From Eggerthellaceae bacterium (lineage in GTDB: Bacteria > Bacteroidota > Bacteroidia > Bacteroidales > Marinilabiliaceae), in NCBI GenBank assembly GCA_963631865.1, contig CAVGTO010000002.1, positions 7,054-71,053 on the forward strand: a stretch of DNA of 64,000 bases. Direction: 5' to 3'. A program made the position numbers and the translations under genes. Below are positions 207 through 41,396 of this stretch, one piece after another. Position 1 is the first letter of the stretch. Every line of letters begins with the position of its first letter. Under the pieces are notes generated by a model. The model saw only the letters and a program-made list of their open reading frames with translations, searched no databases and was not told the origin of the DNA.

Positions 207-218
207 AAACAATAAGAC

Positions 219-896: not shown

Positions 897-908
897 GCCA
901 TCGGAGGT

Positions 909-1613
909 ATGGCAGAAGAGAAAAAAGGGAAACGTACGCCATATAAATTTGACTTCGAGAAGCAGAAATCCTTCAAATACGACTTCCGAAAGGAAGAAGA
1001 TGAAGAAGAGACCGTTGCTGAATCTTCGGAGAAGAAAAAGAATGGCCACGGCGCGATAATAGCCATTGCAGCCGCTGTGGTTTGCGTAGGTATTGCCGTA
1101 TATGCGTGGAATAACTATCGTAGTAATGAGGTAGTTACCAAGGATACTACTAGCAATGCAGAAGTTGTCACCAGCAATGAAGACAAGCAGCAAATAGTCG
1201 AAGAAGAGACTACTCCAGCTGCTTTCGACGCCGCAGAGACTTCTTCTCAACCAAGCGACGTTGCAACTGCAAGTCAAAGTGACAATTCTTCAAATGTTAC
1301 GGAGGCTTCGTCATCTGTAAATTCTAACACCACAGAGGCGTACGGGAATGCGGCGAGCGCTGATAACGCAAACGCCGGAATTGACAAAAACCTGCAAAAG
1401 GCATCTGCAGAAAGCGGTATATCTGAGCTGAAATCAAAGGCTTCCCCAAAAGCCACAACGGCGATTGGCAAGTCTGACGTAGACAAGATGGCTTACCTTG
1501 TAATACGAGGAAACTATGGCAATGGTGAGCGTCGTAAAGCGTTATTGGGAGATAGTTATACAACCATCCAAAATCGCGTTAACGACCTTTACCGGGCAGG
1601 CGAGGTACATTAG
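909..1613 (+). CDS. Single-pass membrane protein with a low-complexity linker and a C-terminal Cpl-7/CW_7-like cell-wall-binding repeat
   Basis: Starts 13 nt after the TerD gene. Charged N-terminus, one TM helix (GAIIAIAAAVVCVGIAVYAW), an S/T/N/A-rich linker, and the tail 'VIRGNYGNGERRKALLGDSYTTIQNRVNDLY', which resembles the CW_7 repeat. Confidence 0.55.
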   Translation: MAEEKKGKRTPYKFDFEKQKSFKYDFRKEEDEEETVAESSEKKKNGHGAIIAIAAAVVCVGIAVYAWNNYRSNEVVTKDTTSNAEVVTSNEDKQQIVEEETTPAAFDAAETSSQPSDVATASQSDNSSNVTEASSSVNSNTTEAYGNAASADNANAGIDKNLQKASAESGISELKSKASPKATTAIGKSDVDKMAYLVIRGNYGNGERRKALLGDSYTTIQNRVNDLYRAGEVH

Positions 1614-1633
1614 TACCTTTGGCATAAATTTAT

Positions 1634-1682
1634 ATCTCCCCGAGGCTGGTATATTTATACCGAGTCTCGGGGAGATTTTTTT
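1634..1682 (+). terminator. Rho-independent terminator after the TerD/CW_7 pair
   Basis: Stem atctccccgag (1634-1644) pairs with ctcggggagat (1666-1676) and is followed by a T7 run. Confidence 0.6.
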
Positions 1683-1691
1683 GTGCGACCA

Positions 1692-1907
1692 TCAAAGTGA
1701 GGCTACCATCTTGGCGAGGAGGGCTCTCTGATGATTGCCTTCGGATCGGTCGGCAAGGAAATATACATCGCTCTCACCAAGGACGCGCTTAATGAGGGTT
1801 GACTTGCCAAGGCGACGTCGGCCGTAAACAACAGTAAGTGACGGCCTTTGCGCAATAATAGCTTTTTGGAGACGAGCAGTCTCGTCGATCCTGTCTACAA
1901 ACTCCAT
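1692..1907 (-). pseudogene. N-terminal fragment of an AAA+/DUF234-type ATP-binding protein
   Basis: The 71-aa ORF 'DETARLQKAIIAQRPSLTVVYGRRRLGKSTLIKR' parallels the N-terminus and Walker A of the intact 481-aa ATPase at 35645 ('ALEDCLESQRSELVVIYGRRRVGKTFLVRH'). It stops after about 70 codons. Confidence 0.6.
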
Positions 1908-2252
1908 TGGCTTCAGAATTATTATGCACCGCGAACATAATGTTTTGGGAGCATAATCACAATCCTATTTTCAGTTGACAATAGACTAATCCTCCGCCAC
2001 CTCCTGCCAGGCGGTGAGGCCCATACCGCGGTCGTCAAGCTCGATGGCGAGGCCAATGGGCTTGCAGTCGGAGTCAACAAAGGAAGCCAGGTAGTGATAA
2101 GCAAATTTGGATTTGTGGGTGTTGAGGAGCCTGGCGGGGGTGATGGATGTGGATTATACAAAGTATTAGTTTCTCAGGGGGTGCGATAACGTCGCATCAC
2201 AGCGTATGGGCATAAAAAAAGCGTCGGAGTCAAGAAGACTTCGACGCTGGAG

Positions 2253-2326
2253 TGATACCGGAGGGATTCGAACCCCCAATCTTCTGGGCCGTAACCAGAG
2301 GCATTATCCAATTGTGCTACGGTACC
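2253..2326 (-). tRNA. tRNA-Arg, anticodon ACG
   Basis: Folded by hand as a 74-nt cloverleaf. Acceptor GGTACCG/CGGTATC, anticodon stem TCTGG/CCAGA, loop TTACGGC (anticodon ACG), T arm GGGGG-TTCGAAT-CCCTC, discriminator A. CCA is not encoded. Confidence 0.9.
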
Positions 2327-2366
2327 AAACCTTTTGTTGCTCTCGGTGTTTTTCCCGATTGCGATG

Positions 2367-2374
2367 CAAAGGTA
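2367..2374 (-). promoter_or_regulatory. Candidate Bacteroidetes -7 box (TACCTTTG) for the tRNA
   Basis: The reverse complement of caaaggta matches TAnnTTTG, 41 nt upstream of the tRNA 5' end. No clear -33 TTTG. Confidence 0.3.
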
Positions 2375-2670
2375 GGTGTTTTTTTGGTTCGTTGTATCTC
2401 CTGGCGGTTATTTTTTTTGAGATTTTTATCCGAGGATTGAGAATAGATTCTGTTTTTGGTTGATAATATCGTGTCTATCAAGGGGATAGAGAGATTGTAA
2501 TTTTTGCGGGTAAGGGATTTTGGTTTACAAGCTTTGCCTAGGGGAAGGCTCGTTTTGTTCGCTTGCTCCCCTAGGCTACAAAGGCGCATGCCCTGCTCTG
2601 CATACACGATTCTGAACTTCGCAAGAATTCGTAGCACCTGGCACTACATATATAACCCCGCAGGCTTTCC

Positions 2671-2760
2671 CAGTTCTCAGCGCACAGTTAACAGTGCACA
2701 GTTTCAGGAGTTTTGAGATTTGACAGCATAAGCGACTGCAACTGCTAACTGTTAACTGGT
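2671..2760. repeat. Heptamer arrays: (CAGTTNN)x5 at 2671-2707 facing (NAACTGN)x4 at 2733-2760
   Basis: Direct reading gives cagttct cagcgca cagttaa cagtgca cagtttc ... cgactgc aactgct aactgtt aactggt. The second arm covers the last codons of the 2745..3233 gene. Confidence 0.85.
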
Positions 2761-3233
2761 GCCGATGTAAGGACTTGGATTTCGTCGTCGGACTGGGCGA
2801 GTTGGGAGTGGAGTTTGCCGCCGGGGCGGAAGTGGGCCAAGACGACTTTGGTGGCGTTAGAGATCATGTAGCGGTTGCGGCATTCGGCTTGGCCGTAGCA
2901 GTCGACCCACGGGAGGAGGAAGTCGGTGGTGGTTACGACGAGCAGGCGGGCTTCGCCAATGGCCTCGACGATGTACGTGGGCCAGAGTTTGGGATATGGT
3001 TTGTCGAGGACGAGAATGGTGGGGATGCGGCGTGCGAGGAGCTTCGCGAGGGCTTTCTGCTCAATTTTTTGGAGATTGCCGCAGAGGACGCAGTCGGTGG
3101 CCGGGTCAAGGGTCTCGATCCATTTTGTGACCTCCAGCTCGGCATTGGCGGGGGCGTTGCGCGACGAGAGGAATGCTATTTTTCGTTCGTGGGTCAACAG
3201 GTCGATGTTGCCTATGGGGACGGAGAGAGACAT
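2745..3233 (-). CDS. Small DprA/Smf-like Rossmann-fold protein (function uncertain)
   Basis: 162-aa ORF with an ATG start. 'IAFLSSRNAP...', 'CGNLQKIEQKALAKLL...IPTILVLDKPYP' and 'CRNRYMISNATKVVLAHFRPGG' loosely follow the DprA Rossmann-domain pattern. Confidence 0.45.
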   Translation of the reverse strand: MSLSVPIGNIDLLTHERKIAFLSSRNAPANAELEVTKWIETLDPATDCVLCGNLQKIEQKALAKLLARRIPTILVLDKPYPKLWPTYIVEAIGEARLLVVTTTDFLLPWVDCYGQAECRNRYMISNATKVVLAHFRPGGKLHSQLAQSDDEIQVLTSAPVNS

Positions 3234-3242
3234 ATCGGTTTA

Positions 3243-3356
3243 CAGTTAACAGTGCACAGTTATTTCCAGTAGCAGTGCACGGTTTGCAGTGCACGTTTTT
3301 TCTAGTTCTTTGTGCACTGCTCTTTTTTGTTTTCAGTGCACAGGTAACAGTTGGCG
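3243..3356 (+). repeat. Degenerate CAGTTNN/CAGTGCA heptamer array with an internal 9-bp inverted repeat
   Basis: cagttaa cagtgca cagttat ... gcagtgcac (3286-3294) pairs with gtgcactgc (3312-3320), followed by cagtgca caggtaa cagttgg. Confidence 0.7.
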
Positions 3357-3465
3357 TTTTTTATTTTGACCTGGCCGCGGGTGCTTCTGTTGGTTTAATG
3401 GGATAGGGAAGACGTAATGTACGTTTTACGATGGTGATAATGTATAGTTTCGGGAGGGATTTAAC

Positions 3466-4941
3466 TTAGTTCCCGATTAATGAGACGACATCACTTTCGG
3501 AGAAGGGGGCGGGAGCGGGGCTCACGTCGGGGATGTTGTAGGATTTGAGGCAAAGAAGGTCGTGCTCGGGGTCGGCTTGCGGGAGGGCGAAGGGACGGGA
3601 GGCGTGGCCTTGGGCATCGATGTGGGCTATGTAGACGCGGCCATATTGACCGTCGTGGCGTTTGGAGGCGAAGACGACCCAGCGGCTTGAGCTGGACCAC
3701 GTGTGGTAGGTCTCGGAGAGCGGAGAATTGAGGGGCGAGACGTCGGCCTCCTCACCCGTATGGAGGTCAATCATGCGGAAATCTGTCTCGCGGTGCCATA
3801 TGGGGAAAGTGCCGCTCTCGGAGGCCGAGAAAAGGAGGAAATGGCCGTCGGGGGAGACCTTTGGGAAACTGGCTGACATGCCATAACGGCTTGCGCTCCA
3901 AAGGGTATCGATGGGGCCAGCCCACTCACTGTCATTACGATTGAAGCCAACGCGGAGAATGGAGTAACGCAGGCAGGCGAGGCTATCGGGCAACGGGAGA
4001 GCCGGCGCCGAGCAGAAATAGACAGTATCGGCATTGGGCGAGAAACAGGGGAAAGTCTCGAGCGTGGAGTCGCCACTTACGAGGGGCGAGAGGATCATCT
4101 TGCCGCTGTCGAAATCGGCAATGCAGAGGTCGCTCTGAGCGTCGTAGACCTCCAAGCGGCGGCTGCCTTGGGAATGGAGGAGCGGGATTATCTCGTTGGT
4201 GGAGAAGACGCCGTAGTGGCCATCGGGACTTATGTCGCCATAGACGGCGCCGCCTTTCATATGCGGGTTGCGGAGATTGACTTTGCGGAGCTCATCCACA
4301 GCCCCACCCTGCCCACAAGAATGGAAGAGGAGACTAGCGCCGCCCTCGCCGCGGACGTGGAAAAGAGTAGTACGGCCGTCATGGCTATGGATATGGCAGT
4401 TCATACAGCGGCCACCGAGATTGCGGTTGTCGGCAAGGATGCGGGAGTTGAAAGACGTCATGTCCCGCTCCTCAATCTGAATGGCGTTCCAGACCTCGTA
4501 GCCGGGCTCGATGAGGCGGTAGGTGACGAAGGGGTCGAAAAGGTCGTCACTCACATCGAAAGAGAAAGTATCGCAGAGGAAGGATCCCGCACGGCGGTAA
4601 TAGAGAGTTACGCCGACATGATTGTCGGACGCGCCAGCCAAAATCTTGCGCCAAACGCCCTCATCGATAACCACCTTACGCCCACGACTAGCCACGCGGA
4701 GCGACCCGTCTCCAGTCGCAAAATCCGCGCAAACGGCATCGACGGAGTCGCAGGTGAGCATAAAGTTGAGCGGGGCGATGGAACGCGGGATGGTCACTCC
4801 GCGGTAGTCGGGGTAAATTTCGTCGGCAGAGAGGGGAACGATGGGATAACCGTCCCCTTCGGGGATGGGGGTGCAGGCTGCGAAAAGTGCGGCGCTGGCG
4901 ATTAGAGACGATAGGCGGGGATGGGTATTATTATTGGGCAT
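3466..4941 (-). CDS. Lipoprotein, copy 1: N-terminal domain, CxxCH motif and a PD40/TolB-like beta-propeller
   Basis: ORF 3466..4974 begins at a TTG. The ATG at 4941 gives the lipobox 'SLIASAALFAAC' and overlaps the upstream stop (TAATG). Motifs: PDYRGVTIP..APLNF, YRLIEPGYE, CMNCH, and SPDG-type blades (ISPDGHY, FSPNADT, VSPDGHF, WSSSSRWVVFAS). Confidence 0.8.
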   Translation of the reverse strand: MPNNNTHPRLSSLIASAALFAACTPIPEGDGYPIVPLSADEIYPDYRGVTIPRSIAPLNFMLTCDSVDAVCADFATGDGSLRVASRGRKVVIDEGVWRKILAGASDNHVGVTLYYRRAGSFLCDTFSFDVSDDLFDPFVTYRLIEPGYEVWNAIQIEERDMTSFNSRILADNRNLGGRCMNCHIHSHDGRTTLFHVRGEGGASLLFHSCGQGGAVDELRKVNLRNPHMKGGAVYGDISPDGHYGVFSTNEIIPLLHSQGSRRLEVYDAQSDLCIADFDSGKMILSPLVSGDSTLETFPCFSPNADTVYFCSAPALPLPDSLACLRYSILRVGFNRNDSEWAGPIDTLWSASRYGMSASFPKVSPDGHFLLFSASESGTFPIWHRETDFRMIDLHTGEEADVSPLNSPLSETYHTWSSSSRWVVFASKRHDGQYGRVYIAHIDAQGHASRPFALPQADPEHDLLCLKSYNIPDVSPAPAPFSESDVVSLIGN

Positions 4942-6488
4942 TATTTTTTGGAATGTAGTTGGCAGTAGAGCCAATAGGAGTGGGCGAAACTGCGTTTGAG
5001 GGCCGAGGCGTCGCGACGCTGCATGAGATCGTTGAAGCGGTCGAAATCGCGGACCACGTCGGAAGGCATCTCGATGCCCGCGAGTCGTGCACGGACCTCG
5101 GGCGGCGCGACGGTCGAGACAACCATCAGAGCCTCGGCGTAGGTGCGCGTCATGAGGCCATTGGCGTAGGCCAGGTAATCCTCGGCGAAATCCGCCATAG
5201 AGGTTTCCTGGAGATCGAGGGCGAGAAGGTATGTGCGCGCAAGGCCGTTGGAAGGATTGGCATCCAAGAGGTTGCGGAGCGAGCGGCGATAGTCGTCCGA
5301 AGCGCGGAGGGTGTCGCGGGAGGAGAGATAGGCACGCTTGTCGGCGAGCCAGGCGAGGTATGCGGCGCCACGGTTCTCGGGGCGGCAGGCATGGGCGAAT
5401 TTGGCATGGCGGAAAGTATGGCTGAGCATACCCAAGTATTTATCGGCCGCTTGCTCGTCGCCACGGATAATATTAATCTCGGCGAGGCGAATCACGTGGC
5501 GCGCGCAAGAGTGGTTGGGCGAGAAGATCATACCGAGGATTGTGGCGTGCTCGGCAAGGGTCATGTCGCCTATGGCATACCACACTTGGCCGGCGGCGGT
5601 GATGCTGAGGTAGTTGCCCGAGGGGGCCACGGGGAGGAAGAGTTGCGTCTGGGCGAGGTCGATATCGTCTATGGCGACGTCGGCCTTTTCGCGGAAGAGG
5701 TGGAGAGTGTATAGGCAATTGGCAATCTGCGTATTGCGGACACGAGGCGGGTAGTCGGCGGGCGAAAGCTTCTTGTTCCACCAAGTCTTGGTATCGACAC
5801 GGAGGATAGACTCGGAAGTGAGGTCGGGCCAGCCTAACCAGCATCCGCCAATGAAACCATGCCAAGGGGCTAGAAACATGGCCACGAGAGCCATTGCGGC
5901 AATGCGCCACCGACGGCGAGCCACCTCCGCGGCAATGATATACGCAAAAGCCACCACGCAGCCGTAGCCAACGGACGTGAGGCCCAAAACAACTATGGCG
6001 AAAGCCACCAAAGCCCTAACTCTCGGCCACTTAGAGACGGGATATAGATTGGCAAGGATGACGCCGAAGAGAAGCGACAGAGACGACGACAACGGATATT
6101 CGCCAACGCACTGGCGCCCCGCCTCCCAAATCATGACTGCCACGCCCGCGCCGAGCGCCACACGCCAATCGACCCACAGGCGACGGAGCCCATATGCCAC
6201 GAAACCGCCAAGCGCATAGAGCACGAAGACGACGATGACGGGTCCGCAGCCAACGTAGTAATAGAATTGCGTAAGGAAACCGCCCACGACGGCCGGCAGC
6301 CAGGCACGGGAGTCGTAGACCCCCTGGCTAAACATCTGACGGATGAAGTCGGACGAGGACAAAAAGAGTGAGAACTGCTCCCGGTGGTAGAAATGGTAGG
6401 GGTAGCAGAGCATGAAGAATATGAGGATTGCGGCGGCTACTGCGGCGCAAACAACTATCGAGACGATAAGATGACGTGTGGGACGCAT
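4941..6488 (-). CDS. Large polytopic membrane protein with a helical C-terminal half, copy 1 (DUF6057-like by recollection)
   Basis: ORF 4941..6518 starts at a TTG. The ATG at 6488 matches the N-terminal length of the paralogs. Shares 'GGFLTQFYYY' and the C-terminal helical region with the 6623 and 10530 genes. It is the most divergent of the three. Confidence 0.75.
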   Translation of the reverse strand: MRPTRHLIVSIVVCAAVAAAILIFFMLCYPYHFYHREQFSLFLSSSDFIRQMFSQGVYDSRAWLPAVVGGFLTQFYYYVGCGPVIVVFVLYALGGFVAYGLRRLWVDWRVALGAGVAVMIWEAGRQCVGEYPLSSSLSLLFGVILANLYPVSKWPRVRALVAFAIVVLGLTSVGYGCVVAFAYIIAAEVARRRWRIAAMALVAMFLAPWHGFIGGCWLGWPDLTSESILRVDTKTWWNKKLSPADYPPRVRNTQIANCLYTLHLFREKADVAIDDIDLAQTQLFLPVAPSGNYLSITAAGQVWYAIGDMTLAEHATILGMIFSPNHSCARHVIRLAEINIIRGDEQAADKYLGMLSHTFRHAKFAHACRPENRGAAYLAWLADKRAYLSSRDTLRASDDYRRSLRNLLDANPSNGLARTYLLALDLQETSMADFAEDYLAYANGLMTRTYAEALMVVSTVAPPEVRARLAGIEMPSDVVRDFDRFNDLMQRRDASALKRSFAHSYWLYCQLHSKK

Positions 6489-6527
6489 AACAAGGGCGAA
6501 TATATAAAATATCGGCAAACATTTTTA

Positions 6528-6535
6528 TATCTTTG
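6528..6535 (+). promoter_or_regulatory. Candidate -7 box TATCTTTG for the 6623-13755 operon
   Basis: Exact TAnnTTTG match in the intergenic region between the two divergently oriented cassettes. Confidence 0.4.
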
Positions 6536-6622
6536 CACATATTTTAAGACAGCGAAGATGTGAGCCACCCGTCAGCACTCACCCTTTCCGAGACGGTCTC
6601 GGCACACATACTAACAACACCG

Positions 6623-8440
6623 ATGCACACGACAACCGACAAGAAACATAGCATGCCCAGCATAGCCTGCGCGGCACTCACTTTTGCCGCTTCATTTGCC
6701 TTTTGGCTCTTCGTGCACCCGGAGGCCATGTCGTTCCACGAGCAATATACGATGTTCCTTTGCACATGGGACTTTGCAGCGCATAGGCTGGCAGTGGCCG
6801 GAGGGCTGGCTGAATACGTTGGAGAATTCATAACTCAATTTGCTTATTACCCGGCAGCAGGAGCTGCACTCATGGCCTTGCTCATGGTGGGGCTCGGGAG
6901 TGGCGTATGGGCCGTCATGCGGAAGATGGGGGCCAGAGAAGGGCACTGTTGGCTGAGCGTCTTGCCCGTGGCGTTGCTCATTGGCTATATGGGCGACGAG
7001 AATGTGGAGCCGGCTTTTGCCGTGGCGCTTACAGGCGGAATATGGATGGCGGCGGGATATGGACTATTGCAAGGTCGGTGGGCGCGGGTTTTTGGAGCTG
7101 GGATTGGGACATGCGTATGTTATTGGGCTTTGGGGCCGGTGGCATGGGCGTTCGCAGTGCTTTGCGGCGTTATTGACATGCGGCGCGGGGCTGGTGTTTG
7201 GGCCGGGCTTGTTGGATTGGTTTGCCTTAGCATCATTTTTTTCATTGCCTCAATTAGTTGGATGAGTCAGTATACGACACAGAACATCCTCTTGGGTCAC
7301 AACTATCATAATTTCCGGATGACGTGGCCCGCCATGCAATTTGTGGTTGAGGCGAGCATTGTAGTCGTGCCTGTGGTCGGCTCATTTTTACCATCAATAG
7401 AGAAGATTTGGGTATCAGCAATCGAAGGCGTCACAATATTCATACTCAGTTCGATATTCGCAATCACCTCATACGATGCGGACAAATACGCAGCCATAGC
7501 ATACGACAGCCTCGTGCGCGCCGAGAAATGGGACGAAATAATAGAACGGGCAACCAAGCGAGCCCCAAAGGACGCCACGAGCATGACGGCCGTTAACCTC
7601 GCCTTGGCCGAGCGCGGCGAACTATGCGAAAGGATGTTCGCCTACCCGCAGAAAGGCGCGGAGGGACTCATAGCTCCATCGCGGCGCGACCAGTTATCCG
7701 CCATAACATCCGCCGAAGCCCTTTTCCGCCTCGGGATGGTGAACGAGGCGCAACACTACTTCTTCGACTCACAGGAAGGCATAGTAGACTGCCACAAGAG
7801 CGCTCGCCTAAGCAAACGCATTGCCGAGACGCTCATAGTGAACGGACGGTACGAGATGGCGCGGAAATACCTACATCGGCTCAGCAAGACCCTTTTCTAC
7901 AGTCAGTGGGGCAAGAAAGCCGAATGGGCGATAAAGAGCGAAGCCACGGTTTGCGCGCACCCCACGTGGGGCCGACTGCGCACCTTAAGGTACAAAGACG
8001 GCTTCGTCTGGAACTACTACGCCATGGACAAGATGCTGGCCATACTCTACACGAGCAACACAGGCAACCGCATGGCGCTGGACTATTACATGGCCCAATG
8101 CCTCTTACGGCGCGACATTCAGAGAGTTTGGAAAGGCCTCGGGTGGGCAATAGCCGACTATGGGCGGGACAACATCCCGCGCCACATCCAAGAGGCCGTG
8201 GCATTGGCATGGATCCAGGGGCATAAGGATTTTGAGGGCGTACCCATAACTCTTTCTGAGAGCGTCGTCTCCGACCTTATGGAATATATGCGCATCTACA
8301 CAGCCAACGCATCCGACCCGCGCCTCGACACACAGCGGTGGCGAGCCACATACTGGCACTACCTGCTGCGCCAAAAGCCATCGGACGCCACAACGGGAGC
8401 CACGCAGAAATCAACCGCCAACGAAGAACAGACACGATGA
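6623..8440 (+). CDS. Large polytopic membrane protein with a helical C-terminal half, copy 2
   Basis: The ORF is open from a GTG at 6560. The ATG at 6623 gives an N-terminus the same length as copy 3. Motifs: 'HPEAMSFHEQYTMFL', 'YVGEFITQF', 'NLALAERGELCERMFAYPQ', 'LGMVNEAQ', 'GRYEMARKYL'. Confidence 0.8.
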   Translation: MHTTTDKKHSMPSIACAALTFAASFAFWLFVHPEAMSFHEQYTMFLCTWDFAAHRLAVAGGLAEYVGEFITQFAYYPAAGAALMALLMVGLGSGVWAVMRKMGAREGHCWLSVLPVALLIGYMGDENVEPAFAVALTGGIWMAAGYGLLQGRWARVFGAGIGTCVCYWALGPVAWAFAVLCGVIDMRRGAGVWAGLVGLVCLSIIFFIASISWMSQYTTQNILLGHNYHNFRMTWPAMQFVVEASIVVVPVVGSFLPSIEKIWVSAIEGVTIFILSSIFAITSYDADKYAAIAYDSLVRAEKWDEIIERATKRAPKDATSMTAVNLALAERGELCERMFAYPQKGAEGLIAPSRRDQLSAITSAEALFRLGMVNEAQHYFFDSQEGIVDCHKSARLSKRIAETLIVNGRYEMARKYLHRLSKTLFYSQWGKKAEWAIKSEATVCAHPTWGRLRTLRYKDGFVWNYYAMDKMLAILYTSNTGNRMALDYYMAQCLLRRDIQRVWKGLGWAIADYGRDNIPRHIQEAVALAWIQGHKDFEGVPITLSESVVSDLMEYMRIYTANASDPRLDTQRWRATYWHYLLRQKPSDATTGATQKSTANEEQTR

Positions 8441-9918
8441 AGAAGCAAGTCAAGACATCATACCGCCTAAGCGCACCCACGTGGATTGCGGCCCTCGCCA
8501 CTGCCCTCGCCACAGCGGCATGCGCCGACTCGCCAACAGCCACCACGCCCACCGACGGCCTCGCTCCACACATCTGGCCCGACTATGCGGACGTTACGAT
8601 ACCTGCCGCCACGGCACCCCTCAACTTCTGCGTGGACAGCGCAGAACAGGTCTTCGCAAGGGTGACAGGCGAGCGAGGAGGCGAGATAACGGCCAACGGG
8701 CAATATGCCGACTTCGACATCGACGAGTGGCACGAACTGACGACCCGCAATATGGGAGCCGACCTTACGGTATCCGTATCCACAAAACGGAACGGCAAAT
8801 GGATGCGCCACAACGACTTCACCATCCACGTAAGCGCCGACAGCCTTGGCGACTATGGGCTGACGTATCGCAAGATAGCCCCGGGATATGAGACCTACAG
8901 CGATATTGGAATATACCAGCGCGACATACACACCTTACGCGAGGAGGCCATAGTGGCATCGACGCTCGTGCCCGGCCAATGCATGTGCTGCCACACGGCC
9001 AACAGAGCCAACCCGCAGCAACTGACGCTCCACTTCCGCGGCCGGCATGCCGCCACGCTTATTCAGGTGGACGGAAACCGCAAATGGCTCACCACCAAGA
9101 CGGACAAGACGCTGTGCAACTGCATGTACCCCTACTGGCACCCGAGCGGCAACTATTGCGCCTACTCACTGAACAAAGTGAACCAAGTTTTCCTGACGGG
9201 GCACGAGAAGTTTATAGAAGTCTTCGACCGCGCATCGGACGCATGCGTGATGGACGTCAGGACGAACGAGCTCATCCTCTCGCCACTGCTCTCGACGGAG
9301 GACTACGAGACGTACCCCGTATTCTCGGCCGACGGACGCACGATGTACTATTGCTCGGCCAAGGCGGGCGAGAGAGAGCCACGTTACGACCTATGCGCCA
9401 TAAGTTTCGATGCGGACAAAGGGACCTTTGGCACCAAGGTGGACACCCTTATCCATGCTTCCGCCACGGGCAAAAGCATATCGCTGCCGCGCCCATCGTA
9501 CGACGGACGTTTCGTGATGTATTGCCTTGCGGACTACGGCTACTTCCCGATAGACCACCGGGAGGCAGACCTCTGGATATTGAACCTCAGCACGGGAGCG
9601 ACCTACCCCGCCGAAGCCGCCAACAGCGCGGACACCGAGAGTTTCCACAATTGGAGCTCAAACTCGCGGTGGGTGGTATTCTCCAGCCGACGGCATGACA
9701 GCATGACAAGCCTGGCCTACATAGCGCACGTAGACACGGCTGGGCACGTAGACAAACCCTTCCTCCTCCCGCAGCACAATCCGAGAGAGTTCTACCGTAC
9801 TTCGCTCCACTCGTTCAACACGCCGGACTTCACCACCGAGCCCGTCCGGATTGACCCGCGGGCCACGCAGGCCGAGGTGCTCAGCGACGAGCGGATACAA
9901 GTGACAGTCAGGGAATAG
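8437..9918 (+). CDS. Lipoprotein, copy 2: CxxCH motif and a PD40/TolB-like beta-propeller
   Basis: The ATG at 8437 overlaps the upstream TGA (ATGA). Lipobox 'ALATAAC'. Motifs: PDYADVTIP..APLNF, YRKIAPGYE, CMCCH, 'ESFHNWSSNSRWVVFSSRR'. Confidence 0.8.
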   Translation: MKKQVKTSYRLSAPTWIAALATALATAACADSPTATTPTDGLAPHIWPDYADVTIPAATAPLNFCVDSAEQVFARVTGERGGEITANGQYADFDIDEWHELTTRNMGADLTVSVSTKRNGKWMRHNDFTIHVSADSLGDYGLTYRKIAPGYETYSDIGIYQRDIHTLREEAIVASTLVPGQCMCCHTANRANPQQLTLHFRGRHAATLIQVDGNRKWLTTKTDKTLCNCMYPYWHPSGNYCAYSLNKVNQVFLTGHEKFIEVFDRASDACVMDVRTNELILSPLLSTEDYETYPVFSADGRTMYYCSAKAGEREPRYDLCAISFDADKGTFGTKVDTLIHASATGKSISLPRPSYDGRFVMYCLADYGYFPIDHREADLWILNLSTGATYPAEAANSADTESFHNWSSNSRWVVFSSRRHDSMTSLAYIAHVDTAGHVDKPFLLPQHNPREFYRTSLHSFNTPDFTTEPVRIDPRATQAEVLSDERIQVTVRE

Positions 9919-9954
9919 ATTTCAACTGAAAGCAAGAAAAAACAAAATCAAGAT

Positions 9955-10533
9955 ATGAAAAACGGAATTATAGCCCTTGCGGCATGCGCAATGGCACTCA
10001 CAGCATGCGACCAAACGCCGCTTTGCCACATCCACGGCACAGTGCCCTCTGAGAAATGGGACGGGCAATACGTATTCTTCGTGCCGCAATACGCCAAAGA
10101 CAGCATCGGAGTGGACTCCACCAAGATAACGGGTCACGAATTCACCTTCGAGACCACCAAGAAGGCCCTCTACGACGTACGCCTCAGCTGGCGCACACGC
10201 TACGGCATCCAGAACCTCCTCGTGGCCACCGAGCCGGGCCTTGTAGAGATAAGCCTGGACAGCATAAGCCACGGTGGCGGCGCCCCGCTGAACGACTCAC
10301 TGGAGGCGTGGAAGGAGCGCACGATGGCGTATAACGAGACATCGCACGCGTTGGCCGTGGCGTACCGCAACTTCTACGCGGCGGGCGACAGCATCATGGG
10401 CGACGCCGTGAAGGCACAGGCCAAAGCGGCCTACGAAAAGTATCGCGACGAAACTCTCCGCCTGGCCGAGAGCGTAGACGGCACACCATTGGAGATCTTC
10501 CTGCACCAGATATACGCGGCAAGAAAGAAATGA
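9955..10533 (+). CDS. Small lipoprotein, DUF4369-like N-terminal domain plus a helical tail
   Basis: 192 aa with lipobox 'ALTAC'. 'IHGTVPSEKWDGQYVFF...' resembles the DUF4369 beta-sandwich that usually precedes TlpA-type thioredoxins, but no thioredoxin CxxC is present. Its stop overlaps the next start (ATGA at 10530). Confidence 0.5.
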   Translation: MKNGIIALAACAMALTACDQTPLCHIHGTVPSEKWDGQYVFFVPQYAKDSIGVDSTKITGHEFTFETTKKALYDVRLSWRTRYGIQNLLVATEPGLVEISLDSISHGGGAPLNDSLEAWKERTMAYNETSHALAVAYRNFYAAGDSIMGDAVKAQAKAAYEKYRDETLRLAESVDGTPLEIFLHQIYAARKK

Positions 10534-12311
10534 CACAACAAAAGGCATGGCATGCGGCCCTGACGTCGGCATTCGGCGTCGGGGTATTCGCATTTTGGCG
10601 ATTGGCGCACCCCGAGGCACTATCGTGCGCCGAGGAGCTGCAGCTCTTCCTCTTTAGCGGCGACTACCTCACGGCACGGCTAGCCTACCCCGGCGGCCCG
10701 GCCACATACGTGGGCGAGTTTCTCACGCAGTTCTACAACCCTCTCACGCTCGGCGCCGTCATAGCAGCCCTGCTGATGGTGGTTGTCCAGCGGCTCACGT
10801 GGAAGTCTATGAAGGGCGTGCCCGAGGAGTTAGGGGAGAGAGGCGGAGAGGTGGCCTATGGGCTGTCGTTCGTCGTGCCGGCCTTATTGCTCGTCTTGAT
10901 GGGAGACGAGAGTATTTTGACGGGCCATATTGTCGAAGTGACATTAGGGCTTGGCGTTTGCTGCGCCTTCGCACGATATGGGACTTCGGATTTGCGCCGA
11001 GCGGTCATTTTGGGCATTGGTTTGCCCGTGACGTATTACCTTGGAGGATCGGCTGTTTACCTTGTCTTGGCATATGCCATAGTTTGGCGCATCGCCTCGC
11101 GGAAGAGGTTTGGGGCTTGGGACGCTATGTATCCCCTGGCCGTTTGCGAGATAGGGCTGTCGATATGGGTGGCGTCGCGTTTGGCGGCCTACCCTATCGA
11201 GAGGCTTGCCGTGGGCATTGGGAATTACCGTATGGCGGAGGTGCCTGTGGCGGTCGGATTGTCGATGCCCGCTGTAGGGCTCTTGGCCGCTTTGGCGGGA
11301 TTGAGAGTGATGAACGTCAGGCGGGTGTCGGGGCTCGGGATATTGGGTGTCATGCTGCTTTGCGTTGTCGGCACACGACTCTCTTACGACGAGTTCAAAT
11401 ATCGGGTGATGAAATATGACCTTTGCCTGCGCAAACGCGATTGGAAAGAGGCCATACGCATAGGCGAGAAATATGGAGCAAAATCACCACTAGAATTGGC
11501 ATCGATAAACTTCGCCCTTGCCATGCGCGGCGAGATGGCCGAGAGGATGTTCGAGTTCCCGCAAGTGAACAGCGAAGGACTATTGCCAGTCTTCAGCCGT
11601 GAAGTATTCTCGACAATGATGACGGGCGACATATATTTTGAACTAGGAATGGTGAACACGGCGCAGCGTTTCGCCTTCGAGGCACAAGAGGCCATACCTA
11701 ACCACCAGAAGAGCGGCCGACTGACGCGCCGCCTCGCCGAGGTGGCCATCGCCGACGGACATTACGCCCTAGCCCGGCGTTATCTCGGGGTGCTTAAGAA
11801 GACCTTCGCGTACCGTTCGTGGGCCCGACAGATGGAGGAACTTATCGCGGACGAGGCGCGGGTGAACGCCCATCCGCTTTTCAGCCGCCTGAGGCGGCAG
11901 CGAGTAAAGGAGGACTTTTTCTACAGTGACAGGGAGCTGGACCAGATGCTGGGCCTTCTCTTCAACCATGACAAGACGAACCGCTTGGCGGTGGACTACC
12001 TCTTGGCATGCGAACTGCTGACCAAGAACTTGCCTGCCTTCGTACGCTACGTGCCCCTGTTGGGACAGTTGCCGGACGGCGGCGGCATCCGCATTCCGAG
12101 GGCATATCAGGAGGCGCTGTGCATGGCGTGGGCGCAGAAACATACGAGTTTTGATGGCATGCCGTGGCGACTTGACGCGGAGGTCAAACAGTCGTTTGTT
12201 GACTTCGCACGGATTCACTCGGCCAATCAGAACGACGCGCGGCTCGGCGAGGGGCGCATTGGCAGCAGCTACTGGGCGTACTACACTCGTCAGCTAACAG
12301 TTAACAAGTAA
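10530..12311 (+). CDS. Large polytopic membrane protein with a helical C-terminal half, copy 3
   Basis: 593 aa. Motifs: 'HPEALSCAEELQLFLF', 'YVGEFLTQF', 'NFALAMRGEMAERMFEFPQ', 'LGMVNTAQ', 'GHYALARRYL'. The last codons (QLTVNK) lie in a heptamer array. Confidence 0.85.
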   Translation: MTQQKAWHAALTSAFGVGVFAFWRLAHPEALSCAEELQLFLFSGDYLTARLAYPGGPATYVGEFLTQFYNPLTLGAVIAALLMVVVQRLTWKSMKGVPEELGERGGEVAYGLSFVVPALLLVLMGDESILTGHIVEVTLGLGVCCAFARYGTSDLRRAVILGIGLPVTYYLGGSAVYLVLAYAIVWRIASRKRFGAWDAMYPLAVCEIGLSIWVASRLAAYPIERLAVGIGNYRMAEVPVAVGLSMPAVGLLAALAGLRVMNVRRVSGLGILGVMLLCVVGTRLSYDEFKYRVMKYDLCLRKRDWKEAIRIGEKYGAKSPLELASINFALAMRGEMAERMFEFPQVNSEGLLPVFSREVFSTMMTGDIYFELGMVNTAQRFAFEAQEAIPNHQKSGRLTRRLAEVAIADGHYALARRYLGVLKKTFAYRSWARQMEELIADEARVNAHPLFSRLRRQRVKEDFFYSDRELDQMLGLLFNHDKTNRLAVDYLLACELLTKNLPAFVRYVPLLGQLPDGGGIRIPRAYQEALCMAWAQKHTSFDGMPWRLDAEVKQSFVDFARIHSANQNDARLGEGRIGSSYWAYYTRQLTVNK

Positions 12312-12325
12312 CAGTTGACAGTTTA
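12291..12325 (+). repeat. (CAGTTNN)x5 heptamer array spanning the stop codon of the 10530 gene
   Basis: cagctaa cagttaa caagtaa cagttga cagttta. Confidence 0.85.
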
Positions 12326-12336
12326 CGAATAGAACC

Positions 12337-13755
12337 ATGCAAAAAGACATACTCTCCGCCACAGCCATTTTGGCGGCAACCATAATGTCATCTTGCGCCG
12401 AGAGGCCGACGGACGCACGGGAAATGGCCGCCGCACCCGAGATATGGCCGGACTATGCGGGCGTAACAATCCCGAAAGGCATAGCGCCGCTCAACTTCGC
12501 CATGGCCACGGACGACGCCACGGCGGTCTACGCCACAGCCACAAACGGCAAAGGCAATGAGATAACAGCCTCGGGCGAGGAAGCCGACTTCGACATCGAC
12601 GAGTGGCACAAGCTATTGGCGGATTGCGCAGGCGGCGACAGCATAATGGTAAAAGTCTCGGCGAAGTACGCCGACGGATGGAAGGCATACCGCCCATTCG
12701 CCATATACGTATCGGGCGACACGCTTGCCGACGGGGCATTGGCATACCGACGCATTGCCCCGGGATATGAAGTGTATAGCCATATGGGCATCTACGAGCG
12801 CGATTTGGCCACTTTCCGCGAGACTGCCATAATGGAGAACACGGAGGTGACAAACAGCTGCATAAACTGCCATACGTCGCGCCGCGGCAGCACGGGCGAC
12901 TACGTCTTCCACATCCGAGGCGAAAAGGGCGGCACTGTGGTATGCCACAACGGAAAGAAGAGGCTGGTCAACATGAAGCGACCCGAGACGATTGGCGCCA
13001 CGACGTACCCCGCATGGCATCCCGACGGGCGATATATGGCCTTCTCTGTTAACACCACCCGCCAATCGTTCCACCAGACGAGCGAGAAACGCTTGGAAGT
13101 CTTCGACGTGGCGAGCGACATGGTGGCCTACGATGCCGACGAGGACCGCATAATAACCACACCACTGCTCAACAGGACAGACAGTTGCTGGGAGACCTTC
13201 CCGTGCTTCAGCGCCGACGGGCGCACACTCTACTACTGCTCAGCGCGCCCGCAAGCCGTACCGGCCCACGTCACGGACATTCACTACATCCTGAACAGCA
13301 TCAGTTTCGACGCCACGGATGGGCAATTCGGGACAAAGATAGACACCGTATTGGACCTCAGCGAGCGAGGCCTCAGCATATCCCTACCCCGCACATCGCC
13401 AGACGGGCGATACCTAATGTTCACCGCCTGCAACTATGGCACCTTCCCCATTTGGCACCGCGAGGCGGACCTCTGGATAATGGACCTCAGGACAGGCGAG
13501 GCGAGGCCAATGGACGAGATAAACAGCGACGACACGGAGAGTTTCCATAATTGGAGCTCGGACTCGCGATGGGTGGTGTTCTCGAGCCGCCGCGGCGACG
13601 GGCTTTATACGCGGCTCTACCTGGCTCACGTCGATGCCAACGGGCATGCCTCGAAGCCGTTCCTCCTTCCGCAGGAGAGCCCCAAGAAGTTTTATCGGGA
13701 GATGATGGAGTCTTATAATGTGCCGGAGATGAAACAGTTAACAATTAACAGTTGA
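12337..13755 (+). CDS. Lipoprotein, copy 3: CxxCH motif and a PD40/TolB-like beta-propeller
   Basis: 472 aa with lipobox 'IMSSC'. Motifs: PDYAGVTIP..APLNF, YRRIAPGYE, CINCH, WHPDGRY / FSADGRT / TSPDGRY blades, 'ESFHNWSSDSRWVVFSSRR'. The last 7 codons (13735-13755) are a cagttaa caattaa cagttga array. Confidence 0.85.
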   Translation: MQKDILSATAILAATIMSSCAERPTDAREMAAAPEIWPDYAGVTIPKGIAPLNFAMATDDATAVYATATNGKGNEITASGEEADFDIDEWHKLLADCAGGDSIMVKVSAKYADGWKAYRPFAIYVSGDTLADGALAYRRIAPGYEVYSHMGIYERDLATFRETAIMENTEVTNSCINCHTSRRGSTGDYVFHIRGEKGGTVVCHNGKKRLVNMKRPETIGATTYPAWHPDGRYMAFSVNTTRQSFHQTSEKRLEVFDVASDMVAYDADEDRIITTPLLNRTDSCWETFPCFSADGRTLYYCSARPQAVPAHVTDIHYILNSISFDATDGQFGTKIDTVLDLSERGLSISLPRTSPDGRYLMFTACNYGTFPIWHREADLWIMDLRTGEARPMDEINSDDTESFHNWSSDSRWVVFSSRRGDGLYTRLYLAHVDANGHASKPFLLPQESPKKFYREMMESYNVPEMKQLTINS

Positions 13756-13785: not shown

Positions 13786-14589
13786 TTACCCCTTTTCCAT
13801 CGAGTCGTTGAAGGTTTCTATTTCGGAGACAAGGTTCTGGGCATGCTCCTTGAGCATGAAGATTTGGAAGGGGAGCATAGACTCCTCTTCGCGGGAATCT
13901 ATTAGGGCTTGGATATACTCGGCCTTGTCCTCCTTGCGGACTTTAGAGGGTACGAGATTGAATTCCATCTGGATGTAATTCATAATGAGGCGGGACATAC
14001 GGCCATTGCCATCGACCCAGGGATGAATGGCCACCAGTTTGTTGTGGGCATCGAAACTGAGCAGGTAAGCCTCCATCTCATCCGGGTTTTCAATCAATTT
14101 TTGCCTACGGATATTCATCTCATTGCAGAAATCAGACAAGTGGGACGGCACTTTCTGAAAGTTGAGATATGAGCGGCCACCAGCACCAGCCGTGACGTTA
14201 CAGAGTCGCAAATCACCCACCGAGGAGTCGAACTCGCCCATAGGCGTATTATATATGCTGCCTGTGTTTCGCATCACTATGGCCGCCAAACCTTTAAGCA
14301 TCTCTAAGGAGAAAGGCTTATGACTTGCGGCAAGAGATTTGGCACGTTGATAAGCATGCATAAGGTCGAGGTTCATAAGTTGCTCCACCATAGGTTTACC
14401 CTTGGCCGCAATGCCATCCTCGAAGAGGAGTTGGTTCTCAATTTCCGTAACAGTGGAGCCCTCGATTGCCGTGGAATGGGTAATAAGGGAGTAGAGGTAG
14501 AATTTCTGATAGTCAATCTGATCCGCTATACCTAAACGTTTATACTCCGCGAGAGCATCCCGCAGTTTGCCTATATATTCGCTTATCAT
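13786..14589 (-). CDS. Fic/DOC family protein (AMPylase-type)
   Basis: 267 aa with the canonical Fic motif 'HPWVDGNGRMSR'. Visibly more A/T-rich than the flanking genes. Confidence 0.85.
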   Translation of the reverse strand: MISEYIGKLRDALAEYKRLGIADQIDYQKFYLYSLITHSTAIEGSTVTEIENQLLFEDGIAAKGKPMVEQLMNLDLMHAYQRAKSLAASHKPFSLEMLKGLAAIVMRNTGSIYNTPMGEFDSSVGDLRLCNVTAGAGGRSYLNFQKVPSHLSDFCNEMNIRRQKLIENPDEMEAYLLSFDAHNKLVAIHPWVDGNGRMSRLIMNYIQMEFNLVPSKVRKEDKAEYIQALIDSREEESMLPFQIFMLKEHAQNLVSEIETFNDSMEKG

Positions 14590-14831: not shown

Positions 14832-16340
14832 TTACTCCTTGACTTTGAACTGCCAGAAGGAAGCCTCGCTCCAGCTGCCGTAGTTCTCGAAGTCGCCACC
14901 GTCGGGGTAAACAAGTGTCATATGCTCGTTGTCGAGGTAAACGACCTCGTAGTCGGTAACGTACTTAGCCTCACCAGAGTGATCCTCTTTCCAGGCATTA
15001 ATCTCATAAGGCCAGAGGACAGAGTTCTCACCAGTTACGAGATGGCCGACAGCCCAATTCTCGGATGTGCGGGTGTTGTCGAAAGACCAAGTAGTTGTGT
15101 TGATGAGGTTGCCCTCGCCATCGTACTTTTTGAGTTCGCCGCCATCACTGAGGGTGAAGTAGGCATCGAAGCTCTCGTCGCCTTGGAGCTTGCCGCCAAC
15201 AGCGTTGACAACTTGATCAGCATCTCCGAAAGACGCATCGCCGCCTTGGGATATACCCCACCACTTGCCTGTACCTTGTGAGTAAAGCTCGGTGCCAGTT
15301 CCGGCCTTGTAGCCGATGTTGCCCCAGACGCAGCCGTCGGGAGCCTCGGTGTTCCAAGTCCACTTCTTCTCGGAGCCATCGACATTAGCGAGGCAACCAT
15401 CGTAATCCTCGGCCTTGAACTGCCAGAAAGCAGCCTCATCCCAGCCACCGAGGCCGGAGAAATTGCCGCCATCGGGGTAGACGAGAGTCATCTCAGACGG
15501 GGTGATGTAGACAACCTCATACTCGGTAACGTACTTGCCACCACCGTTCATCTCGAACGGCCAAAGGATAGAGTTCTCACCAGTCTTGAGGTGGTACTTA
15601 GCCCAATCGGTATTCTCGGTCTGCTCAACTACCTCGTAGGTGGTCTCGTTGAGCTTAGAGCCATTGCCGTCGTACTTCTCAATCATACCGTCTTCGGTGA
15701 AGACCATGTAGGCATCGAAACTTTCCTCGCCAGTGAGCTGGCCAGAAACAGAATGCTTAACCTGATCAGCCCATTCGGCCTCCTCTACGACGCCCCACCA
15801 TTGGCCATCGCCATTCTTCGCGAAGGTCTCGCCGTTGGTAGTGCCTCCGCCATATGCGAAGTTACCCCAGACGCGGCCATTGACAGCAGAAGTGTTCCAC
15901 TTGTAGGTCTTGCGGCCAGAGTTTGAGCAGAAGAGCTTCTCGGCAGTCGTGAGGTCTTGCTTAACGTAGACGTTGGCAGTCTTCTCGGCAACGATCTCAG
16001 TTCCGTCGGTATTGTAGAGTATGACGTAGAACTTCTGGTTGGGGTCCGAGCCACGGTTGGGCGCAATGGTGAAGGAGCCAGAAGCACCGAGGGCGAGGAC
16101 GTTCATGCTGCCATCGGACTTGAGGTTGTAGACCTTGACAATTTGGGCGGGGGAGGTGGTGTATGTGAAGTAATTGCCATCCTCGGCCGGGTTGCCGTCG
16201 GCGTCGGTCTGGGTGAAGGAGAAGGCTTGGGATACGGCTTCAGAGGTGGTCTGAATGGGGTCGAAAGTGCCGTCTTCCTCCACGGGATCGCAAGCGCAGA
16301 GGAGGCAAGCGGTCGCCAGTAAGATATAACGTTTCTTCAT
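14832..16340 (-). CDS. PUL-associated surface lipoprotein with two tandem domains of about 165 aa (putative glycan-binding, SusE/F-like role)
   Basis: Lipobox 'LLCAC'. Lies directly downstream of SusD. The internal duplication is visible ('KWNTSAVNGRVWGNF...WQFKAED' versus 'TWNTEAPDGCVWGNI...WQFKVKE'). Confidence 0.6.
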   Translation of the reverse strand: MKKRYILLATACLLCACDPVEEDGTFDPIQTTSEAVSQAFSFTQTDADGNPAEDGNYFTYTTSPAQIVKVYNLKSDGSMNVLALGASGSFTIAPNRGSDPNQKFYVILYNTDGTEIVAEKTANVYVKQDLTTAEKLFCSNSGRKTYKWNTSAVNGRVWGNFAYGGGTTNGETFAKNGDGQWWGVVEEAEWADQVKHSVSGQLTGEESFDAYMVFTEDGMIEKYDGNGSKLNETTYEVVEQTENTDWAKYHLKTGENSILWPFEMNGGGKYVTEYEVVYITPSEMTLVYPDGGNFSGLGGWDEAAFWQFKAEDYDGCLANVDGSEKKWTWNTEAPDGCVWGNIGYKAGTGTELYSQGTGKWWGISQGGDASFGDADQVVNAVGGKLQGDESFDAYFTLSDGGELKKYDGEGNLINTTTWSFDNTRTSENWAVGHLVTGENSVLWPYEINAWKEDHSGEAKYVTDYEVVYLDNEHMTLVYPDGGDFENYGSWSEASFWQFKVKE

Positions 16341-23422: not shown

Positions 23423-23545
23423 ACGCGATAATAGCAAAATTTCGCACAGAAAAGCAACAATTACTTGCTTTTCTGTACGAAATCTGACTGCTTTTCGGTT
23501 GTCAGTGCCCTCCACCGCTACAGCTAGTCAAAAGTCCGCAGAAAA

Positions 23546-24688: not shown

Positions 24689-24712
24689 TGGAATCGATGA
24701 TCGGTAAAGGGG

Positions 24713-26659: not shown

Positions 26660-26723
26660 GATGTTCTAATGGAAAAGTCAAATGGTTGTTGTTTCCTGAT
26701 GAAAGCTAAGTCGCAAGAGAGAC

Positions 26724-41390: not shown

Positions 41391-41396
41391 AAGATG

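Follow-up and report, generated by a model that had tools for sequence, protein, structure and literature searches.

The region between positions 3466 and 13755 of a 64,000-nt stretch of Bacteroidales DNA (contig CAVGTO010000002.1; the whole stretch is called the window here) carries three gene pairs, in each of which a gene for a DUF6057 membrane protein (M) is followed by a gene for a PD40 beta-propeller lipoprotein (L). The pairs, designated M1/L1, M2/L2 and M3/L3, represent a two-gene unit that recurs across the Bacteroidales in the same gene order, whose partners have diversified together, and which frequently lies beside SusC/SusD uptake genes. Our tentatively favoured explanation is an accessory role in glycan-uptake loci, in which every M would serve as the inner-membrane dock for its cognate L and the cofactor that L bears. 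Both families are catalogued (as DUF6057, and under the generic names 'PD40 domain-containing' and 'TolB family') and neither is characterised. As an earlier sequence-only reading of this DNA had held, no function was found for them in Pfam, NCBIfam, PADLOC, the PDB or the literature searched, which contained no mention of DUF6057 and no description of the M-L pair. Since the unit matched none of the characterised systems with which it was compared, save for its setting in a polysaccharide utilisation locus (PUL), we rate it as new in kind, with an inferred function, in a genomic setting of a familiar PUL type.

All six open reading frames (ORFs) lie exactly where the sequence-only reading had placed them. 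The features of the region are as follows.

3466-4941, minus strand: L1, lipoprotein (Cys23) with an N-terminal domain and a PD40 beta-propeller; CMNCH at 4393-4407; the type-1 partner
4941-6488, minus strand: M1, DUF6057, 515 aa; the shorter and most divergent type, lacking the GDE(N) loop motif
6489-6622, no strand: divergent spacer of 134 bp, separating cassette 1 from the M2-L2-DUF4369-M3-L3 operon
6623-8440, plus strand: M2, DUF6057 membrane protein, 605 aa
8437-9918, plus strand: L2, lipoprotein (Cys29) with a PD40 propeller; CMCCH at 8980-8994
9955-10533, plus strand: DUF4369-like small lipoprotein, 192 aa, between cassettes 2 and 3
10530-12311, plus strand: M3, DUF6057, 593 aa; predicted N-domain of nine transmembrane (TM) helices at 10530-11384 and predicted periplasmic helical-repeat domain at 11385-12308
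12337-13755, plus strand: L3, lipoprotein (Cys20) with an N-terminal domain and a PD40 propeller; CINCH at 12859-12873

The partners are closely coupled, and the junctions proved to be as first read: the stop codon of M1 overlaps the start codon of L1 (TAATG at 4941), that of M2 overlaps the start of L2 (ATGA at 8437), M3 and L3 are separated by 25 nt (12311/12337), and the divergent spacer, estimated earlier at about 130 bp, measures 134 bp. The stop codon of the DUF4369-like gene likewise overlaps the start of M3 (ATGA), and therefore M2-L2-DUF4369-M3-L3 forms a single tightly packed operon. Inside the divergent spacer lies a Bacteroidetes-type -7 box (TAnnTTTG), TATCTTTG at 6528-6535 on the plus strand, which is the sole plus-strand match within 3466-13755; the count of TAnnTTTG across the whole window is not above chance, and only the position of the spacer box is suggestive. 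A scan for sigma-70 promoters and terminators, whose models do not extend to Bacteroidetes promoters, gave counts near the shuffled expectation. No riboswitch or other ligand-indicating RNA was found in the window, where a single tRNA is the only RNA detected, and none of the PADLOC defence models matched any of eight proteins at E<=0.01.

In pairwise comparison the L proteins are 34-49% identical to one another, M2 and M3 are 35% identical, and M1 shares 23-26% identity with either M2 or M3. Judged by these sequence comparisons, the three pairs are ancient paralogues that form orthologous groups. The description of the region as a triplicated cassette is thus correct in the number of copies and incorrect in the local triplication that it implied; a recent event of this kind is excluded because the types are only 23-49% identical and recur as orthologues across families.

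The pairing of M with L was followed in other genomes from both partners. An M alignment was used to scan species-representative genomes, and the best 80 loci from at least 396 confirmed relatives, which belong to Prevotella, Segatella copri, Bacteroides, Parabacteroides, Tannerella, Mediterranea and uncultured Bacteroidales, were compared. Essentially every M that has room downstream precedes an L on the same strand, most of the loci carry two or three cassettes, and de novo clustering of the ORFs yields 169 M genes and 173 L genes. The commonest multi-cassette layout is M2> M3> <M1, and four loci (L002, L004, L006 and L014) have a layout identical to that of the window. In the reverse test, which started from 80 L-seeded metagenome loci, tblastn placed M directly upstream of 109 of the 116 testable L genes, and two of the seven apparent orphans have a divergent M upstream that is detected by a hidden Markov model (HMM). 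With either seed, about 97% of testable cases show M followed by a same-strand L whose ORF overlaps or nearly abuts that of M; the two sets of loci thus agree on conserved adjacency and variable copy number in Bacteroidota, for which the sequence-only reading had proposed a check.

The two partners have also diverged in parallel. A comparison of the M-M with the L-L distance matrix, each built over 145 pairs, gives r=0.946; with the partners shuffled inside each locus, r averages 0.14 and never exceeds 0.30. The paralogue types keep to their own partners (M1 with L1 in 32 of 39 cases, M2 with L2 in 32 of 32). These sequence data show that the pairs were duplicated as units and have not reassorted since; such co-diversification is compatible with a physical interaction between M and L and is no proof of it. 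In addition, a natural in-frame fusion of M and L was found in the Logan assemblies (P0359/P0391, a cluster of two proteins, 857 and 888 aa long, on separate contigs), in which DUF6057, truncated at profile position 421 of 569, is joined directly to the N-terminus of mature L. This fusion is consistent with both parts residing in one compartment. A fourth, more divergent type of DUF6057 protein is encoded upstream of L genes in two loci (L096, 2-1840; L136, 82-1875); it is recognised by the family HMM (E ~1e-27 to 1e-32) and was missed by tblastn with the three paralogues of the window.

The assignment of the membrane partners to DUF6057 (PF19529), anticipated by the sequence-only reading, is confirmed, with scores of 283.9 bits for M1 (E 4e-84), 472.9 bits for M2 (E 2e-141) and 490.3 bits for M3 (E 1e-146) against a gathering score of 29.8 bits; NCBIfam gave no match for the M proteins. 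The AlphaFold2 model of M3 is confident (predicted local distance difference test score, pLDDT, 92.8; predicted template-modelling score 0.90) and all-helical; the first 285 residues contain about nine long hydrophobic helices, and about 16 helices arranged in hairpins come after them. The C-terminal domain of about 300 residues therefore has the helical, tetratricopeptide repeat (TPR)-like character that had been read from the sequence, and profile matches to TPR in this half are weak. Over 148 M proteins the cytoplasmic loops contain about 6.0 Lys or Arg in about 27 residues, whereas the periplasmic loops contain 3.1 in about 73. Because this pattern obeys the positive-inside rule, M is predicted to have its N-terminus inside, nine TM helices and its C-terminus outside, with the C-terminal domain and a long acidic loop past TM1 (EL1; 4.45 Asp or Glu per sequence) in the periplasm. 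EL1, with the motifs 'LSYQEQYQLFLF...PGGLADYIAEFLTQFYY', is the best-conserved segment of M (mean column conservation 0.62, against 0.34 in the rest of the TM region). Near-universal residues of M are Q67, G75 and G173, together with N327, G373, R397, L422, W431, N484 and Y490 in the periplasmic domain, and few conserved polar residues are found in the TM helices.

The membrane domain of M appears to have a fold that is absent from the PDB, as judged from the M3 model and from profiles. A Foldseek search of the model against the PDB returned no match at E<=1e-3, and its top 50 matches, all weak, are nearly all TPR or other helical-repeat proteins, with no GT-C enzyme among them. Phmmer and profile searches of the PDB sequences with M found no relative (the best match, NIPA2 at E 4, is noise), an hmmsearch of the PDB sequences with a profile of the TM domain (alignment A3) gave no matches, and in Pfam at E<=10 DUF6057 alone is matched. 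Aligned by hhalign with a single template sequence, Escherichia coli ArnT, alignment A3 reached a probability of 0.03% (E 0.94). Given that so confident a model has no match in the PDB, the resemblance of M to GT-C glycosyltransferases and O-antigen ligases, which the sequence-only reading had put forward, is unsupported, and membership of M in these groups is rejected on the results of Foldseek, Pfam, the PDB profile search and hhalign. M as a CcsA/CcmF-like haem lyase was considered separately and rejected, the TM domain having neither a conserved His nor a Trp-rich motif.

L is more constrained than M. The three signal peptides are of Sec type and end in a lipobox Cys (FAAC, TAAC and MSSC in L1, L2 and L3), and PD40 repeats are the only Pfam match of the three proteins. 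The AlphaFold2 model of L3 is confident (pLDDT 89.4) and consists of a small N-terminal domain and a PD40 propeller, which by its modelled strand pattern has about six blades. Foldseek ranks TolB proteins first (E ~1e-13, TM-score ~0.5), followed by the propellers of S9 peptidases, and no CAZy-type propeller is among the top matches; Pfam, the model and Foldseek together bear out the earlier view of L as a PD40/TolB-like beta-propeller lipoprotein. The likeness to TolB, a periplasmic protein that also has an N-terminal domain and a propeller of about six blades, is one of fold only. The N-terminal domain of L is unmatched in Pfam at E<=10, and there is thus no match to TolB_N; NCBIfam gives only sub-threshold propeller matches (TolB, PorE, Dpp5 and lasso-peptide isopeptidase), and phmmer and profile searches of the PDB sequences yield TolB alone, at E ~0.015. 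The precomputed Pfam labels PF26549 and PF26550 turned out to be weak propeller matches to Tricorn_N and Tricorn_2nd and designate no specific family.

The most distinctive feature of L is a CxxCH motif, usually C-(V/M/I)-N-C-H, which was noticed in the sequence-only reading and is invariant in 148 of 148 paired L proteins. The L family, defined by the N-terminal module and the first blade, comprises 919 representative clusters at E<=1e-3, and the motif is likewise present in all 73 full-length proteins among the 150 best-scoring representatives. Y137, R138, R155, R194, Y224, E254, E286 and H404 are at least 97% conserved in all three paralogue types, and C301 is about 90% conserved. Together, CxxCH and the invariant Arg, Tyr, Glu and His residues would form a cofactor site, which we infer to hold haem c in covalent linkage, with a metal centre as the second choice. 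The presence of the same invariant residues in every L paralogue points to a shared cofactor or catalytic site over differing ligand pockets. As an exported protein with a conserved CxxCH, L resembles c-type cytochromes, although the motif is atypically placed in a modelled beta-strand. Bacteroides is reported to possess both the system II cytochrome c maturation genes (ccsA/ccsB) and nrfAH, the latter being reported for Prevotella and Porphyromonas as well (PMC10434189), and haem c attachment looks feasible in Bacteroidales.

The residues past the lipid Cys of L do not contain the acidic run that is present in the neighbouring c3 lipoprotein. In Bacteroidetes, lipoproteins are exported to the surface when an acidic run follows the lipid Cys; by this published rule the sequence of L places it most probably in the periplasm, and that of c3 probably on the cell surface.

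The genomic neighbourhood is that of a nutrient-uptake locus. Next to the cassettes, and convergent to them, the window carries the following operon.

14832-16340, minus strand: c3 lipoprotein, 502 aa; acidic run past the lipid Cys (CDPVEEDG) and two internal repeats
16440-18347, minus strand: SusD-like lipoprotein
18366-21629, minus strand: SusC-like TonB-dependent transporter

This operon, the DUF4369-like gene and a glycoside hydrolase operon found downstream of the array in Bacteroides and Parabacteroides were all absent from the sequence-only reading. The DUF4369-like gene is present in 54 of the 80 M-seeded loci and stands directly upstream of M in 48 of its 55 occurrences, mostly before an M3-type gene (36), with a median gap of 1 nt. 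Within 6-kb flanks of the same loci, c3 was scored in 44 and SusD in 32; SusD is followed by c3 in 31 of these 32, and c3 by M or DUF4369 in 31 of the 44. This synteny from c3 to the cassettes spans loci labelled as Prevotella, Bacteroides, Tannerella and Marinilabiliaceae, and in other genomes SusC/SusD is co-directional with the cassettes (for example in locus L011). The c3 protein is unmatched in Pfam. Among solved structures, the SusC of the window is closest to two SusC homologues (PDB 8aa4 and 5t3r), which we take to be the dextran- and levan-utilisation SusCs. In five Bacteroides and Parabacteroides loci the array runs directly into same-strand genes for GH26, GH130, an MFS_2 sugar symporter and a 2-epimerase-family protein; in eight loci a GH26 gene is found no more than a few kb from the array.

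The window thus contains neighbouring susC-like and susD-like genes, the pair by which a PUL is recognised, and the likeness to PULs extends to the many genomes in which SusC/SusD and the likely surface lipoprotein c3 are syntenic with the cassettes, and to the loci that continue into GH26-GH130-MFS_2-epimerase genes. On the other hand, neither M nor L is a carbohydrate-active enzyme (CAZyme), a hybrid two-component system (HTCS) or extracytoplasmic function sigma-type regulator, or a major facilitator superfamily (MFS) transporter, and the pair is not a recognised PUL component; the locus of the window also differs from a typical PUL in having no recognisable CAZyme or regulator. Upstream of SusC no sigma/anti-sigma or HTCS regulator was found; overlapping ORFs of 83 and 239 aa occupy 22548-23515 on the minus strand there, the larger of them without a Pfam match.

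Two further genes touch this neighbourhood. A protein of 340-420 aa with a C-terminal RidA/L-PSP domain is encoded directly upstream of M or of DUF4369-M, on the same strand, in 13 of its 16 occurrences, in loci labelled as Bacteroides, Segatella and Prevotella (for example L016, 1151-2407, and L044, 12746-13765); it is absent from the window and may be an optional fourth component. A Fic/DOC-family gene (13786-14589, minus strand) stands between L3 and the c3-SusD-SusC operon, and because it has no counterpart in the 80 related loci it looks like a local insertion.

The analysis establishes gene order and coupling, conservation, co-diversification, folds, predicted topology and genomic context; the physical binding of M to L, the nature of the cofactor, the substrate and the chemistry belong to the inferred part of the following proposed model. 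Each cassette would encode a two-protein envelope unit, in which M is an inner-membrane protein that turns EL1 and its helical-repeat domain towards the periplasm, and L a Sec-exported periplasmic lipoprotein of TolB-like build with a C-x-N-C-H cofactor site. EL1 and the periplasmic domain of M would bind the cognate L and so hold a cofactor-bearing, enzyme-like propeller at the surface of the inner membrane. Such docking is compatible with the co-diversification of the partners, their shared predicted compartment and the natural fusion. The unit would serve a glycan-uptake locus composed of SusC, SusD and the surface lipoprotein c3, and its periplasmic target would be the imported substrate, with membrane-linked redox chemistry as a possible mode of action; the two or three paralogous pairs might have distinct specificities or be subunits of one assembly. 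The model as a whole is tentative, and within it haem c and a metal or disulfide site are roughly equally probable. A more specific version, in which the pair is a hitherto unknown kind of envelope machine of anaerobic gut Bacteroidales, with a monohaem c-type cytochrome at the centre of the propeller lipoprotein L, a dedicated inner-membrane protein whose TM fold is new to hold it, and quinone-coupled redox chemistry on oligosaccharides imported by SusC/SusD, is considered unlikely.

Several points weigh against the docking model or against its redox component. First, the M alignment contains no conserved His or Cys and no other obvious redox or quinone-site residues. Second, AlphaFold places CINCHTS (residues 175-181 of L3) in a beta-strand with a pLDDT of about 78, whereas haem c sites usually form a helical turn, and the Cys and His residues of L could, on this model, bind a metal or form a disulfide instead of carrying haem; with the motif in a strand of lower confidence, a metal or disulfide site stays a live alternative. 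Third, a mirror-tree signal can be produced by shared duplication history alone, and the contact between M and L is putative. Fourth, SusC/SusD neighbours were seen within the 6-kb flanks of only 44 of the 80 loci, a frequent link that this count does not establish as obligatory. Finally, the locus of the window itself has no recognised CAZyme and no regulator.

The alternative that survives best shares the dock with the favoured model and differs from it in the chemistry. L would be a non-redox glycan-active enzyme or binding protein, its CxxCH...H a metal site (structural or catalytic) or disulfide, and M its dock at the inner membrane. The modelled beta-strand of CxxCH, which pairs with the H192-x-R194 strand, the further conserved Cys at position 301 and the glycan-utilisation setting all agree with this possibility, and beta-propellers are common folds of glycan-active enzymes. 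However, when a periplasmic protein exported by Sec has an invariant C-x-x-C-H, this is the classical signature of haem c, and the order is reported to possess CcsBA; a CAZy-type propeller is missing from the top Foldseek matches. We regard this explanation as possible, if rather unlikely.

The strict one-to-one adjacency and co-diversification of the pairs could also reflect a maturation relationship, in which M is a dedicated factor or holdase whose periplasmic TPR-like domain stops apo-L from folding and presents its CxxCH to the general CcsBA lyase, in the manner of CcmI or NrfG with particular apocytochromes. A CxxCH within a propeller blade would be an awkward substrate for a haem lyase, M carries a periplasmic TPR-like domain on a membrane anchor, and it is an established pattern that dedicated cytochrome maturation genes adjoin the substrate gene, as with NrfEFG and NrfI. 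Compared by description, CcmI, NrfG, NrfEFG and the NrfI/CcsA1 of Wolinella succinogenes share with the M-L unit a membrane-anchored periplasmic TPR protein adjoining a CxxCH protein. The comparison is weakened in that CcmI needs only two TM helices, whereas the nine of M, together with the very conserved EL1, suggest more than an anchor, and in that M has neither a conserved haem-handling His nor a Trp-rich (WWD) motif; haem on L is, moreover, only putative. A maturation role of M is accordingly decidedly unlikely.

M is the sole inner-membrane protein encoded in the locus of the window, where neither an ATPase nor an MFS gene is present, and this leads to the alternative that the pair is a binding-protein-dependent secondary transporter, comparable to the tripartite ATP-independent periplasmic (TRAP) and tripartite tricarboxylate transporter (TTT) systems. 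L would then capture the substrate imported by SusC/SusD and M would be the permease, to which the co-diversifying one-to-one pairs and the linked SusC/SusD importer are favourable. Nevertheless, M shares neither fold nor sequence with solved transporters and its TM helices contain few conserved polar residues, while the residues that are invariant in L are identical in all paralogue types, which suits a cofactor better than differing ligands. In addition, the Bacteroides loci have their own MFS_2 symporter directly downstream, and with a separate sugar symporter in the Bacteroides and Parabacteroides loci M need not be the permease. This explanation is improbable. Propeller lipoproteins are also co-encoded with a TonB-dependent transporter in the BtuB-BtuG (vitamin B12) and XusABC (xenosiderophore) systems, of which Xus also includes an inner-membrane protein (PMC10434189). 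BtuG and XusB, compared with L by description, are surface lids of transporters other than SusC, whereas L has no surface-export signature and is partnered with an inner-membrane protein, not with a barrel.

That M could be a GT-C-type transferase using a lipid-linked donor (similar to TMTC/PMT enzymes or O-antigen ligases), which modifies L or a glycan presented by L, is suggested by its architecture. Like the TPR-bearing GT-C enzymes (TMTC, PMT_2 with TPR, DUF2723/TMEM260), it combines a polytopic N-domain with an extracytoplasmic TPR-like domain and has a conserved acidic residue in its first extracytoplasmic loop; E35, conserved in 140 of 148 sequences, lies in the long periplasmic EL1, which has short interfacial helices, and GT-C enzymes keep their catalytic Asp or Glu in the first periplasmic loop. 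The residue is compatible with GT-C and not specific to it. Neither fold nor profile similarity to these enzymes was detected for M: nothing in the PDB matches the M3 model (pLDDT 92.8) at E<=1e-3, GT-C enzymes are missing from its 50 best hits, the TM-domain profile finds nothing among PDB sequences, the hhalign probability with ArnT is 0.03%, and Pfam at E<=10 gives only DUF6057. Most GT-C enzymes, moreover, have more than the nine TM helices of M. We consider a transferase of this type quite improbable.

Finally, a Tol-Pal-like envelope tether, in which L would be a TolB analogue serving envelope integrity or outer-membrane processes rather than nutrient uptake, is very improbable: TolB is the best structural match of L (E ~1e-13), and weak matches to TIGR02800 and to PorE of the type IX secretion system exist, but the TIGR02800 scores are 18-36 bits against an equivalog cut-off of 343, the TM-scores are about 0.5, and L differs from TolB in being a lipoprotein with an invariant CxxCH, encoded outside a tol-pal operon with no tolQRA or pal nearby, in two or three paralogous copies per locus, and in a glycan-utilisation setting with DUF6057, DUF4369, SusC/SusD and c3 as its neighbours.

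The remainder of the window holds several other gene sets. Positions 1-3400, where the GC content drops to 0.48, contain a tRNA-Arg(ACG) (2252-2326, minus strand), a gene for a CW_7-repeat protein (909-1613, plus strand) that may be cell-wall-binding or lysin-like, and a weak DprA-like fragment (2745-3233, minus strand); an integrated element next to cassette 1 may have left this segment behind. A fumarate reductase/succinate dehydrogenase operon (23933-27452, minus strand) encodes an Fe-S subunit, a flavoprotein and a membrane subunit of 242 aa without a Pfam match. At 29886-35106 on the plus strand is a teichoic-acid-like or phospho-glycan set, composed of an IspD-type cytidylyltransferase, an NAD-dependent epimerase/dehydratase-family protein, LicD, a Wzx-type flippase (Polysacc_synt_3) and a CDP-glycerol glycerophosphotransferase-like protein, whose chemistry is unusual for the surface glycan of a member of the Bacteroidales. 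On the minus strand at 37456-45278, two adjacent ORFs of very large size encode proteins of 1234 aa (Big_5, CopC) and 1293 aa (no Pfam match at E<=1e-5). Another uncharacterised Bacteroidetes envelope set (46141-52313, minus strand) contains an M6-like metallopeptidase, two Omp28-domain proteins and a DUF6029 protein (E 3e-182). A second SusC/SusD locus (52998-61658, minus strand) continues with Peptidase_Mx1 (a putative zinc metallopeptidase), DUF4302 and a BACON-domain protein; its accessory genes include the putative peptidase and no recognised CAZyme, and it is a separate Sus-like locus.

Hundreds of Bacteroidales species carry the M-L module, among them Segatella copri and members of Prevotella, Bacteroides, Parabacteroides and Tannerella, mostly as two or three co-evolving copies within nutrient-uptake loci, and neither M nor L has a solved relative. 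Should M tether to the inner membrane an L that is a haem or metal enzyme, the pair would constitute a new class of PUL component, and L would be an unexpected periplasmic cofactor protein in fermentative gut anaerobes. Should the cytochrome-propeller version be true, it would mean that glycan utilisation in these bacteria includes an oxidative or reductive step that lies outside the CAZy framework.

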